A stretch of DNA of 64,000 nucleotides. It comes from Candidatus Latescibacterota bacterium. GTDB lineage: Bacteria; Latescibacterota; UBA2968. Positions within the stretch are counted from its first letter, which is position 1. Every line of letters begins with the position of its first letter. The translations under genes were made by a program, and so were the position numbers. The stretch lies in NCBI GenBank assembly GCA_965204375.1, contig OZ241986.1, positions 3,520,001 to 3,584,000 on the forward strand, given 5' to 3'. Positions 386 to 4,199 of the stretch are shown piece after piece. The notes under the pieces are model-generated. The model saw nothing but the letters and a program-made list of their open reading frames with translations, was not told the origin of the DNA and ran no database searches.

Positions 386-790
386 GTGAAGGTCTTCTTC
401 GAATGGCCGTACGAGGAATCGTGGAATATTACCCAGGCTCACCACTACCTCAGCCGATTCTGTGAGTTTGATCCCGAGCATTGCCTCCTCGCCCTCGACA
501 AAAATAAGGTAATTGGCGCGATGTTCGGATACTGCTATCCCTGGCAAGACCGAATCAACTACTACATGCAAGAACTTTTTGTCGATCCCGATCAAAGGCG
601 GTCAGGCCACGGACGAAGACTGGTGCGTCATCTGCTCGACAAACTCGGAGAATCGGACGTATCCATGTCCCTGATCGCCAATGAGGCAACGCCAGCAGCC
701 GCATTCTACGAGGAACTTGGACTGCGGCAGCACAGATACTACAAATTTTATTGCGGTACCATAAAACCGGGGGATTATGTAGTTGAGTAG
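386..790 (+). CDS. GNAT family N-acetyltransferase; C-terminus altered by IS insertion
   Basis: ELFVDPDQRRSGHGRRL (acetyl-CoA motif A) and AAAFYEELG. The last codons lie inside the IS left end. The start is uncertain and the N-terminus looks short. Confidence 0.8.
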   Translation: MKVFFEWPYEESWNITQAHHYLSRFCEFDPEHCLLALDKNKVIGAMFGYCYPWQDRINYYMQELFVDPDQRRSGHGRRLVRHLLDKLGESDVSMSLIANEATPAAAFYEELGLRQHRYYKFYCGTIKPGDYVVE

Positions 791-792
791 CA
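770..792 (+). repeat. Left terminal inverted repeat of the IS1595 element
   Basis: Reverse complement of 4142-4164 with one mismatch; directly preceded by TAAAACCG. Confidence 0.93.
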
Positions 793-822
793 TGATCGCT
801 CCTCCTTTCAGTTTCAATTTAG

Positions 823-851
823 AAAATATGAATATTCATTGACATTGTAAA
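823..851 (-). promoter_or_regulatory. Predicted outward-facing sigma70 promoter with palindromic operator-like site
   Basis: Minus strand TTTACA-17 bp-TATTTT; the spacer contains the perfect palindrome ATGAATATTCAT (828-839). Confidence 0.45.
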
Positions 852-867
852 AGGGATTCGATAGATT
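839..867 (+). promoter_or_regulatory. Predicted sigma70 promoter for the 976-1431 passenger gene
   Basis: TTGACA (839-844)-17 bp-TAGATT (862-867). Confidence 0.6.
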
Positions 868-975
868 ATCAGCATCTGTCAAATTACTGATATTTTTGTC
901 TTACATTACGAATATACGTTTTAGCCCTGACGGACAAACTCACGGAAGCCCTGACGGCATCCAAAGGAGAGTTCC

Positions 976-1431
976 ATGGATATACAGAGACTCATTAAAG
1001 AAGAGTACAAGGAGCATGAACCTTTCTATTGCAAGGAACACGCTTTGGCAATATCGAAAAGGAACGTACTCGAAAGAATTGTGCGCGAGCGTTCTGGAGA
1101 GCCTGAGGTAGTCCCCTCGATCTGGGATAACAAGCGGGCACCTACTCCGATTGTGGTGCCAGGGGGATCTGGTGGCGAAGCCATAGGTGTTGCTTTAGTC
1201 GCTTTGCTCATCGGCGGCGGCTATGCGCTATACAAATGGCTATCCAGTGACGATGCCCAAACGTCGTCCAATGACACTTCTGGCAACTCTGGTGCCCCTT
1301 CTGTGAATGAGCAACTCAACCGCATCGAGGAAAGGCTCGACGGACTCGACGCGAAACACGCCGACATTGAAAGGGCGCAAGATAGAGCGAAAGCCATCCT
1401 GGACCGCCTTAAAGTTCCCGAAGCGGCTTAA
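976..1431 (+). CDS. Hypothetical single-pass membrane protein with C-terminal coiled coil (IS passenger)
   Basis: SD AAAGGAG before ATG; hydrophobic AIGVALVALLIGGGYALYKWL; heptad-like LNRIEERLDGLDAKHADIERAQDRAKAIL. Confidence 0.7.
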   Translation: MDIQRLIKEEYKEHEPFYCKEHALAISKRNVLERIVRERSGEPEVVPSIWDNKRAPTPIVVPGGSGGEAIGVALVALLIGGGYALYKWLSSDDAQTSSNDTSGNSGAPSVNEQLNRIEERLDGLDAKHADIERAQDRAKAILDRLKVPEAA

Positions 1432-1443
1432 CCATATTACATG

Positions 1444-1530
1444 AAAAAAGCCCTGGCGGTATCGAGTCAAACTGCTGATAGCATTAGAGCATTCAAGTTT
1501 GTCCGTCAGGGCCATGAGAGCTAATTTCCT
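1444..1530 (-). ncRNA. Predicted structured antisense sRNA convergent on the 976-1431 gene
   Basis: Minus strand GCCCTGACGG...CCGCCAGGGC closing stem followed by TTTTTT, with inner CAAACT/AGTTTG stem. Complementary to leader sites 879-892, 923-933 and 946-961. The 5' end is uncertain. Confidence 0.45.
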
Positions 1531-1600
1531 GTCATAATTTTATGCCAGAAAAAGGGAGATTTCGCAACTAAAATACTGCCCACTTGGGCAGTAAAAACAC

Positions 1601-1629
1601 TTGCATTTCAGAGGTTACGATGTTATCTT
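1601..1629 (+). promoter_or_regulatory. Predicted sigma70 promoter of the transposase leader
   Basis: TTGCAT-17 bp-TATCTT; preceded by inverted repeat TACTGCCCA/TGGGCAGTA (1574-1593) and overlapped by GGTTACGAT/ATCGTAACC (1613-1646). Confidence 0.5.
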
Positions 1630-1666
1630 TATATCAAATCGTAACCCCTTATTTTTTGGGTAGATA

Positions 1667-1750
1667 TAAAAAGGGCGAGACCTATGTTCGCGCATAGGTC
1701 TCGCCCGACTGCCCTCCATCAAGCTAAACAAAGTGACATTGCCTTAGCTT
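1667..1750 (-). ncRNA. Predicted antisense RNA (about 85 nt) to the transposase leader
   Basis: Minus-strand promoter TTGCAA-17 bp-TATTTT (1785-1757); hairpin 1719-1752; terminator stem 1673-1706 followed by a T run on the minus strand. Confidence 0.5.
1668..1706 (-). terminator. Rho-independent terminator
   Basis: Perfect 14-bp stem GGGCGAGACCTATG/CATAGGTCTCGCCC, 6-nt loop, T tract on the minus strand. Confidence 0.7.
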
Positions 1751-1804
1751 GAACAAAAAATAACGGGTAGCCACACAAATTGCAAGAGAAAAGTGAGGTG
1801 TGCT

Positions 1805-2770
1805 ATGGCTACCAATGCCCCTGGCATGCATTTCCGTGAGGGCATGTCTCTGATTCAGTTGTTCCAGATGTTTCCTGATGATGAGGCTGCCGAGAAGTGG
1901 TTTGTTCACACGCGCTGGCCGGATGGGATGGCCTGTCCGCACTGTGGGAGTACGAATGTCAACGAAAAGGCCACACACCCTACGATGTCCTTCAGATGCC
2001 GAGAATGTGTCAAATACTTCTCGCCAAAGACGGGCACCATCATGGCACGATCTAAGCTCGGATACCAGATATGGCTTATTGCCATCTATCTCTACACCAC
2101 ACACCTTAAAGGCGTGTCCTCTATGAAGCTACACAGAGACCTCGACATCACACAGAGAACCGCCTGGTTCTTACTCCATCGCATCAGGCACGCCATGTCT
2201 GAGGAGGAACAGACCCTCTTTGAGGGCACAGTAGAAGTCGATGAGACGTATATCGGTGGGAAGGAAGGGAACAAACACGCCAAAGACAAACTGCGTACTG
2301 GCAGAGGCACAGCAGGCAAAGTCCCTGTGGCCGGTGTCAAGAACAGAGACACAAAGCAAGTGCAGGCAATCGTGATCGACGAGGCCGATGAGGACACGTT
2401 GAAAGTGTTTATTGAGGATACTGTGGCGCGTGGGGCCACTGTCTATACGGACGGCTCACACGTCTATAACAGTCTGGAGGGGTATGAACACGAAAAGGTG
2501 ATTCACTCGCGGGGCGAATACGTCCGGGGGGATGTGTGGACAAACGGCATCGAATCATTCTGGTCAGGGATCAAACGCGGCATTATGGGCGTGTACCACA
2601 AGATCAGCCCAAAGCACCTGTGGCGATATGTCACAGAGTTTGTGGCACGCCAGAACATGCGGATGCGAGACACCATCGACCAGATGACGCTCATTGTGCG
2701 GAGGTTCGAGGGAAAACGGCTAAGGTATGCAGACTTGACGGCACTGTATCCATCGCTGGAATTACGTTGA
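1805..2770 (+). CDS. IS1595-family transposase (Zn ribbon + ISXO2-like DDE domain)
   Basis: RWPDG..CPHCGS..CRECVK zinc ribbon; VEVDETYIGG, VYTDG, TNGIESFWS, YHKISPKHL..Y..EF motifs; SD GAGGTG. Confidence 0.95.
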   Translation: MATNAPGMHFREGMSLIQLFQMFPDDEAAEKWFVHTRWPDGMACPHCGSTNVNEKATHPTMSFRCRECVKYFSPKTGTIMARSKLGYQIWLIAIYLYTTHLKGVSSMKLHRDLDITQRTAWFLLHRIRHAMSEEEQTLFEGTVEVDETYIGGKEGNKHAKDKLRTGRGTAGKVPVAGVKNRDTKQVQAIVIDEADEDTLKVFIEDTVARGATVYTDGSHVYNSLEGYEHEKVIHSRGEYVRGDVWTNGIESFWSGIKRGIMGVYHKISPKHLWRYVTEFVARQNMRMRDTIDQMTLIVRRFEGKRLRYADLTALYPSLELR

Positions 2771-2795
2771 CAGGCACGGCGATATGATGTATAAC
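2767..2795 (+). promoter_or_regulatory. Predicted sigma70 promoter for the small passenger ORFs
   Basis: TTGACA (2767-2772)-17 bp-TATAAC (2790-2795), overlapping the transposase stop codon. Confidence 0.6.
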
Positions 2796-2809
2796 TAAAC
2801 TGTGCAGAA

Positions 2810-2882
2810 CGCACAAATGGAAATGACTCACCCCGTAGAAGGTGAGCCATTCCAAACACTAAAATTCATCGCCGACAGATGA
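2810..2882 (-). ncRNA. Predicted antisense RNA (about 70 nt) to the leader of the small ORFs
   Basis: Minus-strand promoter TTGACA-17 bp-TAAGTT (2917-2889); GC-rich hairpin GGAAATGACTCACC/GGTGAGCCATTCC near the predicted 3' end. Confidence 0.45.
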
Positions 2883-2936
2883 TGCCTAAACTTACATCAC
2901 TTGGGGGCATCTGTCAAGGCGGAAAGGAAGCATGCT

Positions 2937-3110
2937 ATGCCCTTCAATAAAGAAGAAGCCTTGCAGGAGATGGAGGCAGAGCGGGTAGCATTAGAGGTCT
3001 ATCTGCGCCGGAACGGAGAGACGCCACAATCCATCCAACGGCGCATACCGAAGGCGCCACCACCCATAGAATCAAAGCCGATCATGCCGACAGTGCCACC
3101 ACCCATTTGA
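2937..3110 (+). CDS. Hypothetical 57-aa protein with Pro-rich tail (IS passenger)
   Basis: SD-like AAGGAAG 6 nt before ATG; downstream of the predicted promoter. No family recognised. Confidence 0.5.
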   Translation: MPFNKEEALQEMEAERVALEVYLRRNGETPQSIQRRIPKAPPPIESKPIMPTVPPPI

Positions 3111-3123
3111 ACGGAGGGTAGTC

Positions 3124-3333
3124 ATGAATCAGCCAGTACTTATTGAACCTGAGAGTGTAGTAGTGGACCGTAGCCCTATGCCAATTCCTCGTCCGGTGAC
3201 ACTTGCTATTCATTATCGCACCTCAGATGGTGCATTGTCTGTCATAGTGTTCGGATTGACCGTACCACAGGCAGATAAATTGGAGTCGGATTTACGTCTA
3301 AAGAGGGGAGAAGCCTCAACATCAGGAATATGA
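3124..3333 (+). CDS. Hypothetical 69-aa protein (IS passenger)
   Basis: SD GGAGG before ATG; 13 bp after the previous ORF. Confidence 0.5.
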   Translation: MNQPVLIEPESVVVDRSPMPIPRPVTLAIHYRTSDGALSVIVFGLTVPQADKLESDLRLKRGEASTSGI

Positions 3334-3486
3334 AGCATAAACATACATCCATCTGGTATCTCTAACGACGCCTGAAACTTCGCCATTTCTTCCCAGTTTA
3401 TTTCGTAATCGCTGGCTTTTTGCTGTTCTGAAGTAGCCATCTCTCTCACCTCCTTCTGAGATTAAAATATCAGGTTGGAAAATCAC

Positions 3487-4104
3487 ATGCAAATATACAC
3501 CCCAGGTGGATTGACAATCAAGTTACATGCAGACCGGGTTGAGCGTGTATTAAAACCTGTCCGTCATCTCATAAACATCGAAGATGCTTTCGTTGATATT
3601 CAATTATGGGCAAACTTCCCCGGTAATATGTTGTCAATTTTAGCTATTATTACTGCTCTAACCACACAGTCATGGACTTCGGTATTGATTGTGGGTGTTC
3701 TTGGCTTTGTTTTGGTCGATCTCTACCAACAATTTTTTTACTCACGTTTTCTCAAGGTGTTATTTCCTTTTGTATTAGGGGCGTTCTACGTCACACTGCC
3801 AGCCTCATTGATCACCATTTATATTTTATATCAAGAAGGTGCTATTATAGCTGGAATCACTCAGTTTGTTATGGTTCTTATGGACATTACAGGCATTGCC
3901 GATTTGATTTTATTTTTTTCTACGCCTATTAGGTTTTCTGTCCGATGCCTCTTTGGCAAAAGAGCAAAGGAAGGTGCGATTGAAGAGGCCTTTATTAAAA
4001 TCTTGAATCACAAAGCAAGACAAGTTGGCGTAATTCTCGATTGGCAAAGCTACAATCGCCGAGAAACTGATACCTCTTTCTTTTTTGGGGATCATGTGAG
4101 ATAA
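3487..4104 (+). CDS. Hypothetical multi-pass membrane protein (IS passenger)
   Basis: AT-rich ORF of about 205 aa with several hydrophobic segments; ends 37 bp before the right terminal repeat. Confidence 0.7.
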   Translation: MQIYTPGGLTIKLHADRVERVLKPVRHLINIEDAFVDIQLWANFPGNMLSILAIITALTTQSWTSVLIVGVLGFVLVDLYQQFFYSRFLKVLFPFVLGAFYVTLPASLITIYILYQEGAIIAGITQFVMVLMDITGIADLILFFSTPIRFSVRCLFGKRAKEGAIEEAFIKILNHKARQVGVILDWQSYNRRETDTSFFFGDHVR

Positions 4105-4141
4105 TGCTGCCAGCACACGCATCACTTGCCTCCTTTCGCTC

Positions 4142-4164
4142 TGCTACTCAGCTACATAATCCCC
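4142..4164 (-). repeat. Right terminal inverted repeat of the IS1595 element
   Basis: 22/23 match to the left repeat; directly followed by TAAAACCG. Confidence 0.93.
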
Positions 4165-4199
4165 TAAAACCGGACGTGGAATAGTCTATCTTACAAGCC

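Follow-up and report, generated by a model that had tools for sequence, protein, structure and literature searches.

Repeats enclosing a passenger membrane-protein gene in an IS1595-family insertion sequence, and the lineage-restricted RNA module that they resemble

In the window analysed here, a stretch of 64,000 nucleotides from the Candidatus Latescibacterota assembly GCA_965204375.1 (contig OZ241986.1, positions 3,520,001 to 3,584,000 of the forward strand), an open reading frame (ORF) for a 151-residue membrane protein, ORF151 (976..1431, plus strand), lies near the left end of an insertion sequence (IS) and is enclosed by one inverted and two direct repeats. A preliminary description had read these repeats as a type I toxin–antitoxin-like RNA switch. 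We think there is an even chance that they are instead inherited parts of a genus-restricted RNA module, which mobile elements have reused and which is here split onto two converging transcripts. An antisense arrangement at ORF151 is plausible, and the toxin–antitoxin reading is unsupported.

The repeats around ORF151 and the module family

The 17-mer GCCCTGACGGACAAACT at 924-940 of the plus strand has a perfect reverse complement at 1496-1512 (inverted repeat I1). These are its sole two matches in the window when up to 3 mismatches are allowed, and two or more matches arose in 0 of 100 dinucleotide shuffles. The sequence AAGCCCTGACGGCATC at 946-961, which stops 1 base 5' of the Shine-Dalgarno (SD) stretch AAAGGAGAG (963-971; ATG at 976), recurs at 1448-1463 with 14 of 16 positions identical (2 mismatches), and TCAAATTACTGATA at 879-892 recurs at 1467-1480 with 12 of 14 (2 mismatches). 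At least two matches to the former were also found in 10 of 100 shuffles, and 9 of 100 do equally well for the latter. Taken alone, the two direct repeats are not beyond chance; they are credible only because they fit defined parts of a module family found at other loci. All three pairs lie where the preliminary description had placed them, and the closed stem ending in U6 that it reported on the minus strand of 1444-1512 was likewise recovered: a single closed hairpin of -22.9 kcal/mol (z-score -3.55) is the fold predicted for the minus strand of 1444-1513, and none of 200 shuffles equalled it. The plus strand of the same interval folds better (-26.4 kcal/mol, z-score -4.43), because an A-C mismatch on the minus strand becomes a G-U pair on the plus strand. 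The minus-strand RNA shares the 17-mer with the 5' untranslated region (UTR) of ORF151 and does not carry its complement; it is the two UTRs of the ORF151 mRNA itself, 5' and 3', that are complementary over 17 bp.

The same non-coding pieces occur as a contiguous unit at a third locus of the window's genome (G000), beside a transposase gene 75% identical to that of the IS, and in the related genomes G013 and G011. The unit begins with a TTGACA-type promoter, continues with a leader 5' stem-loop that holds segment 'a', and then runs through segments 'b', 'c' and 'd' to a U-run. Segment 'c' (apical part) is complementary to 'a', and the 3' arm 'd' is complementary to 'b'. The 5'-arm motif 'b' (GCCCTGRCGGACAA), which is sometimes present in tandem (b1, b2), has the nearly constant sequence GCCCYGRCGGACAA. 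A 14-nt core of the 5' arm does not vary at all among 8 aligned hairpins, in contrast to the 3' arm, where G-U pairs and a few mismatches occur; pairing is seen in 94.3% of the alignment cells and falls to 27-52.5% if the partner is shifted by 1-3 columns, and the polarity of the U-run is the same in all eight. A covariance model built from these hairpins, R1, gave 17 matches at E <= 2.3e-5 in 9 of the 31 genomes of the family, all of them within the window's genus. Matches of about 40 nt each at E values from 2.6e-4 to 0.01 resemble ordinary terminators and were left out of this count.

In the contiguous modules 'a' keeps 16-19 near-perfect pairs with 'c', and the sequences involved differ by sub-type: CATCAGACTGTTGATA with its partner, GTCACCAAAC with GTTTGGTGAC, and CTGTCACCAGCTACTG with CAGTAGTTTGGTGACAG. 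Since the sequences differ between sub-types, the a:c helix has been retained by two-sided changes. We scored the complementarity between the hairpin interior, including the 3' arm, and the 100 nt upstream for 16 hairpins with 200 shuffles each; the score exceeded all 200 shuffles in 6 of them, while just 1-2 shuffles came as high in 2 others and 10 did so in one further hairpin. Given the order a-b-c-d, the a:c and b:d pairings cross and cannot form together as long helices. By its anatomy the contiguous unit would therefore be a terminator/antiterminator leader placed before the next ORF or accessory genes, in which b:d would be an intrinsic terminator and a:c the crossing, mutually exclusive helix.

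The family bears directly on how the inverted repeat around ORF151 is to be read. Exact copies of the 17-mer also stand at the third locus and in G013 and G027, none of them with an inverted partner. The perfect inverted repeat is thus a product of motif conservation rather than of co-evolution of a pair. The earlier idea of repeats specific to this pair does not hold for the other complementarities either, as those of a with c and of b with d are intrinsic to the module family. An Rfam search over the IS locus, the third locus and seven module loci found no family at E <= 1 and no c4-like match. One weak match to rpfG within the window (about 729-802, E 0.5) was judged to be noise. A scan of metagenome contigs for the hairpin pattern returned 31 loci, most of which failed to close b:d and none of which had other module parts, and it was not used further.

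The split arrangement in the window

Reading inward from the IS end, a promoter-like site on the plus strand, P1 (TTGACA-17-TAGATT, 839..867), agrees with the consensus at 10 of 12 positions and has homologues in G027, in G013 and at the third G000 locus. It is followed on the plus strand by the leader 5' stem-loop TATCAG...CTGATA (868..893; helix 877-881:888-892) with 'a' as the repeat at 879-892, by b1 (924..940), which is the left arm of the 17-bp inverted repeat, and by b2 (946..961), the second tandem copy of the 5'-arm motif, 1 nt before the SD stretch. The tandem of b1, linker and b2 is found at the third locus and in G013 as well. There is no terminator in the ORF151 leader, because neither 'c' nor 'd' lies between b2 and the SD stretch.

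A complete b-c-d hairpin with U6 lies on the minus strand, just past the ORF151 stop codon (1444..1512, U-run from 1449 to 1444), and R1 scores it at 81 bits (E 7e-17). Read from 1512 to 1444, a G+C-rich stem runs directly into the U-run, as in intrinsic terminators. Within it, 1496-1512 is b1, 1448-1463 is the complement of d, and 1467-1480 is the complement of c. The three repeat pairs are thus b1 with an inverted b1, b2 with the complement of d, and a with the complement of c, and the 17-bp inverted repeat and both direct repeats are there because the same module parts lie in opposite orientations. The hairpin shows no complementarity to a leader of its own (79 of 200 shuffles do equally well); the window's 'a' is on the other transcript.

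To the right of the hairpin, and so upstream of it on the minus strand, we read from the sequence a second promoter-like site that points leftward, P2 (TTGCGA-17-CATAAA, 1567 to 1539 on the minus strand, 1539..1567). Its hexamers are kept, with diverged spacers, in G027 (TTGCGA-17-CATACT) and in G029 (TTGCGA-17-CATAAT). In G029 (L011 1202-1399, minus strand) P2 precedes a leftward ORF of 65 codons with a good SD stretch, whose product combines a coiled coil with a C-terminal membrane helix and has only weak coiled-coil matches in Pfam, one of them to XhlA (E 0.037). At the left end of this IS group, small membrane proteins with a single pass seem to recur as passengers. Because P2 is conserved and the U6 hairpin has the polarity of a terminator, it is reasonable to predict a convergent RNA that starts near 1532, runs leftward to 1444 (about 90 nt) and is antisense to the ORF151 3' UTR.

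On the plus strand the 1444-1512 hairpin has no U-run, so the ORF151 mRNA should read through it. A hairpin with a U-run at 1613..1657 (plus strand, 1613-1621:1638-1646 as the helix in the fold) is kept before the transposase gene in relatives of the IS, with arms that change in step, and it is likely both to end the ORF151 mRNA and to insulate the transposase gene that follows. Two further structures are found on the minus strand, a terminator-like hairpin 5' of P2 (1574..1593) and a perfect 14-bp hairpin with a U-run (1673..1706, inverted repeat I4). The region 1570-1792, 5' of the transposase gene, is conserved in many relatives of the IS, and probably insulates that gene from outside transcription in both directions.

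From these features we infer that both RNAs would be made and that they may have a regulatory effect. P1 would drive a leader with the 5' stem-loop, 'a', b1 and b2 straight into the SD stretch and ORF151, and the mRNA would read on to the terminator at 1613-1657. The complete b-c-d-U6 hairpin, lying on the other strand behind the leftward P2, would stop P2 transcription, which would yield the antisense RNA of about 90 nt and would shield ORF151 from convergent transcription; transcripts that read through from P2 would be antisense to ORF151. Regulation, if there is any, would most likely act where the P2 RNA perfectly overlaps the 3' UTR, and through the predicted closure of the mRNA between its 5' and 3' UTRs.

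One observation made by eye concerns a different partner for this RNA. The 'c' segment at 1466-1480 is an exact 15-nt complement of 'a' in the second module of the third locus (G000 1318775-1318830), a fit that exceeds the one to its own neighbouring leader (12 of 14). Cross-talk between elements through the small RNA (sRNA) is conceivable.

ORF151 itself, preceded by the SD stretch at 963-971, encodes a protein with a single transmembrane helix. Its one hydrophobic segment spans residues 67-87, with predicted helices at 3-14, 20-40 and 110-145 outside it. Basic residues precede this segment and acidic residues follow it, which suggests that the N-terminus is inside and the C-terminus outside. 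An AlphaFold2 model of low confidence (mean predicted local distance difference test score 58.3) has an N-terminal helical hairpin, a membrane helix and, at the C-terminus, a long helix. The protein belongs to a rare family without a name: we found 5 relatives among 5.8 billion sequences, 11 representatives of clusters (E <= 0.001) in a set of 1.84 billion, and the gene in 2 of 168 genomes of the phylum. Its sole family match is a sub-threshold one to XhlA over residues 110-145 (E 0.0011, 19.6 bits against a cut-off of 34.7). Nothing was found in PHROGs, PADLOC or NCBIfam, and the ESM Atlas gave no usable match. Among genome contigs the search returned only a G027-like record and a spurious match of 15 residues, and metagenome and viral contigs held no relative. 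A 91-codon ORF antisense to the region (1240-1515, minus strand) has no SD stretch and no Pfam family, and was treated as non-coding.

The one homologous locus for which DNA is available, in G027, keeps P1, 'a', b1 and P2. A deletion between two GAAGCC stretches has removed b2, the start codon and about 70 codons, and about 36 unrelated bases stand in place of the hairpin. The expectation that the repeats would be conserved with homologues is therefore not borne out by this locus, although a decaying, truncated copy says little about function.

Pairing tests and competing explanations

The preliminary description had a downstream sRNA pairing beside the ribosome-binding site (RBS). The first part of this, a convergent RNA of about 90 nt, stands as plausible on the strength of P2 and of the polarity of the U6 hairpin, while the pairing it was meant to make is energetically unfavourable. 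Taken as a plain duplex, the P2 RNA and the 5' UTR (874-1000) reach -39.1 kcal/mol, a value that does not discriminate, given that 82 of 500 shuffled sequences, and 237 of 495 windows taken elsewhere, equal or better it. When opening costs are included, the RBS-side site 946-961 comes to +3.5 kcal/mol (hybrid -20.1, mRNA opening +9.5, sRNA opening +14.2), the site 879-892 to +2.3 kcal/mol (hybrid -11.0) and the pairing of b1 with d to +4.2 kcal/mol; the gain of the cofolded ensemble is only about -3.1 kcal/mol. The totals on the RBS side are positive because 'c' and 'd' of the sRNA are locked in its own terminator. Furthermore, 'a' has drifted in the two ORF151-type leaders, which differ from the complement of 'c' at 2 and 4 positions. 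Regulation by blocking the RBS is unlikely. The 3' UTR is another matter, as the P2 RNA is by geometry fully complementary to it.

These results bear most heavily on the toxin–antitoxin reading, in which ORF151 would be a membrane toxin, the P2 RNA an antitoxin pairing with the 5' UTR, the 3' UTR or both, and the pair would stabilise the IS or abort infection. We consider this very unlikely. The layout does recall such systems, with a convergent, terminator-ended sRNA over the 3' UTR of a membrane-protein mRNA on a mobile element, complementarity of 14/16 to 946-961 and 12/14 to 879-892, and a match, albeit below threshold, to the lysis-associated XhlA; in the accessible text of PMC3834814, SR4 likewise makes its first contacts from the terminator loop and alters the SD region. 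However, the RBS-side energies and the drift of 'a' speak against the proposed pairing, and the repeats are generic parts of the module. The protein also fits poorly: at 151 residues, with one transmembrane helix between two long helical soluble parts and no toxin, holin or defence family above threshold, it differs from type I toxins, which the accessible parts of PMC6563280 and PMC3919570 describe as small hydrophobic proteins. The hairpin is also missing from the G027 copy, but that copy is a pseudogene. An addiction or abortive-infection role would be purely inferential.

Closure of the mRNA could matter with no toxin involved. The helix between b1 and its complement in the 3' UTR would then set mRNA stability or translation, and the P2 RNA would open the closed form by taking up the 3' arm of this helix. 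In equilibrium folds of 874-1530 and of 874-1662, the helix 924-940:1496-1512 forms over all 17 pairs with a probability of 0.907-1.0 per pair, and the local 3' hairpin has a probability of 0. In addition, the minus-strand b1 has an A where a G would perfect its own stem, and thereby retains identity to the 5' b1 at the cost of that stem. Yet a perfect 17-bp complement always wins an equilibrium fold, which ignores ribosomes and co-transcriptional folding, and the identity of the 17-mer at three loci that have no inverted partner means that its conservation needs no such pairing. Even in the closed form the SD stretch is partly open (unpaired probability up to 0.9), so no effect on translation is predicted. 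On balance we regard a functional fold-back as unlikely. About as improbable is the proposal that the b motif is a binding site for a protein, an antiterminator or translational regulator, for which the b copies at the RBS and in the P2 RNA would be targets or decoys. It would account for a 5' arm that is invariant over 14 nt in 8 hairpins beside a 3' arm that varies and tolerates G-U pairs and mismatches, and in the a:c state of the leaders that we call type 1 the b motif would sit in a loop; however, no candidate regulator is consistently adjacent, the neighbours being ORFs without assignment, a DDE transposase and AbiEi/AbiEii. Binding of a protein to b can coexist with a split module.

That the 17-bp copies are sites of a DNA inversion, which would flip 941-1495 and swap ORF151 between P1 and P2, is highly improbable. 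The repeat is perfect and flanks the segment, and on paper the flipped state would be P1-a-b1-c-d-U6, the contiguous form seen in the modules third2 and G011a, and would give a leftward gene driven by P2, as in G029. Nevertheless, all three copies for which DNA is available (two in G000, one in G027) have the same orientation, and no serine or tyrosine recombinase domain was found among the ORFs of the IS, though the factor might be encoded elsewhere. In contigs from four runs the IS is one unitig and 0 of the 14 listed joints change strand, which is weak evidence, as contigs drop rare variants. Moreover, colinearity of the leader with canonical modules extends past b1 into b2 (862-956, 87%), which places the point of rearrangement somewhere other than b1. 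Another variant, which we think quite unlikely, is that a cis-acting terminator/antiterminator leader has been rearranged into a trans-acting pair, an mRNA leader (a, b1, b2) and a convergent sRNA (b, c, d), with the sRNA regulating its neighbour and possibly the leaders of sister modules.

The split-module reading, which we prefer, has difficulties of its own. P1, P2 and termination at 1444 are predictions from sequence, and P2 was not listed in a consensus promoter scan, which missed it because its second hexamer has no final T; its support is the three sequences given above. At -22.9 kcal/mol the window hairpin is the weakest among the family members that we folded, the others ranging from -29.9 to -40.8 kcal/mol, and since it also folds better on the plus strand, it may serve the mRNA rather than a minus-strand RNA. 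The change of G to A in the minus-strand b1 may be a sign that the long-range pairing is under selection, or a trace of gene conversion. Leader complementarity was not above shuffles for 7 of the 16 hairpins. The b:d stem shows no significant covariation, with two-sided change at 1 pair and a score equalled or exceeded by 89 of 500 shuffles, so that the reading of this stem as RNA rests on the polarity of the U-run and the G-U pairs. Finally, a split module leaves the invariance of the 5' arm unexplained.

The host element, known systems and wider context

The preliminary description was right to place the gene inside an IS. The element measures 3,395 bp (770-4164) and is 100% identical to a second copy at 4398607-4402001 of the same 6.34-Mb genome. 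Its termini are 23-nt inverted repeats, GGGGATTATGTAG..., of which the left (770..792, plus strand) and the right (4142..4164, minus strand) agree at 22 of 23 positions in both copies. The target-site duplication is 8 bp in length at each site, TAAAACCG at the window site (762..769 on the left, 4165-4172 on the right) and CCCAAAAT at the other; the two sequences differ, and transposition was therefore independent. The transposase gene (1805..2770, plus strand) matches Pfam DDE_Tnp_IS1595 (E 1.5e-38) and Zn_ribbon_IS1595 (E 6.1e-9), and NCBIfam transpos_IS1595 (E 6.5e-58, 196 bits against a cut-off of 75). A target-site duplication of 8 bp is characteristic of the IS1595 family, and the zinc-ribbon DDE transposase, terminal inverted repeats and duplication length found here all conform to it. 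Enclosed as they are with the transposase between inverted ends and target-site duplications, ORF151 and three further ORFs of no assigned function (2901-3110, 3124-3333 and 3475-4104, plus strand, spanning 2901..4104) are passengers of a transposition-competent IS. The last of these encodes a 209-residue membrane protein, none of the three has a family above threshold, and the four passenger proteins together matched 0 families in PHROGs, PADLOC and NCBIfam. In a basic relative of the IS (L014, in G028) the left inverted repeat directly adjoins the conserved region 5' of the transposase gene, which makes the interval of about 795-1565 in the window a left-end add-on.

Several observations concern the insertion site. 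A gene for a GNAT acetyltransferase (386-790) has lost its last codons to the IS, and its frame now stops within the left inverted repeat of the element. In run X4, a contig from a sponge metagenome links 765 to 4198 through 32 other letters, and represents an IS-free relative. In runs X2/X3, loose ends at 770 and at 4164-4165 include flanks unlike both sites in the assembly (consensus agreement 0.62 at 770, a new flank at 4165), so further insertion sites are likely in that sample, and the IS would therefore be active. Sequence of the window is partly present, in small shares, in sponge, coral and marine metagenomes.

A comparison with known regulatory RNAs helps to define what is unusual about this locus. 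In the par system of pAD1 (Fst, RNA I and RNA II), oppositely transcribed direct repeats are complementary near the start of the toxin mRNA, and the two RNAs share a terminator; in the window, by contrast, the repeat pairings are imperfect and energetically unfavourable. Type I toxins are usually under about 60 residues, and ORF151 is not such a short toxin. The hok mRNA of hok/sok folds back between its 5' and 3' ends, whereas here fold-back is only an equilibrium prediction. RNA-OUT of IS10 and similar IS-encoded antisense RNAs pair with the start of the transposase mRNA; the small antisense RNA predicted here would likewise lie inside an IS near one end, but would be antisense to the 3' UTR of a passenger gene. 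Terminator/antiterminator leaders resemble the contiguous relatives, which place a U-tailed b:d and a crossing a:c between a strong promoter and an ORF. Unlike such leaders, the module has no known sensor, an invariant 5' arm and no Rfam family at E <= 1, and in the window its halves are on different strands.

A close parallel to the layout is bsrG/SR4 of Bacillus subtilis, with its convergent, terminator-ended sRNA over the 3' end of a membrane-protein mRNA on a mobile element (the sRNA being a prediction in our case). According to the accessible text of PMC3834814, SR4 acts both on the decay of bsrG mRNA and on its SD region. The length of ORF151, at 151 residues, sets it apart, as does the finding that the RNA parts in the window are generic modules which also stand before unrelated genes. 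As for the element, the accessible part of PMC7986276 notes that some IS families include members with passenger genes, called tIS. The window IS is like these in its IS1595 transposase, inverted repeats, 8-bp target-site duplications, two identical copies and extra genes between the ends, and unlike them in that its passengers belong to no named family and that a lineage-specific RNA module surrounds the passenger at the left end.

If the split-module reading is correct, the locus is not a new toxin–antitoxin system and instead exposes an RNA regulatory module that has not been described before. This module is confined to one lineage of Latescibacterota, uncultured and associated with sponges; it has no Rfam family, and it stands before accessory genes of various kinds, both in insertion sequences and near AbiE defence genes. 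The split, convergent layout at ORF151 would then be a clean setting in which to ask how parts of an attenuator can come to serve as antisense regulators. It also carries a caution, namely that perfect inverted repeats flanking a passenger gene can be two copies of one conserved motif. Were the trans-acting pair real, the locus would be a natural snapshot of an attenuator giving rise to type I-like antisense control, and of cross-talk among insertion sequences at the RNA level.

The module family, with its unexplained invariant arm and an adjacent structured RNA, is a more novel outcome than the ORF151 locus. Contiguous type-1 modules, which combine a strong promoter, a 55-nt leader, a b-hairpin and a large ORF of no known family, adjoin AbiEi/AbiEii toxin–antitoxin genes in two genomes (L070 3-1285 in G012, and L069 1783-2382 in G028), which suggests a defence-island or mobile context. 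The structured RNA, a family of about 170-200 nt, stands outside the window directly before or after a b-hairpin and upstream of small ORFs. With nhmmer we found 8 copies in G000, at 1318035-1318196(-), 1318505-1318678(-), 660412-660544(-), 662490-662631(-), 4304225-4304374(+), 6229300-6229462(+), 6243996-6244151(+) and 2990666-2990824(+), and it is also present in the loci L018, L042, L072, L095, L097 and L098; it has no Rfam match at E <= 1. Four of 8 aligned copies (G019, G020b, G015 and G020c) have a promoter-like TTGACA-17-TATATT of their own. The sequence of the closing helix is wholly changed between copies, and of the 29 pairs that RNAalifold predicts 11 show compensatory changes, a pattern that looks like a riboswitch or another new cis-regulatory RNA.

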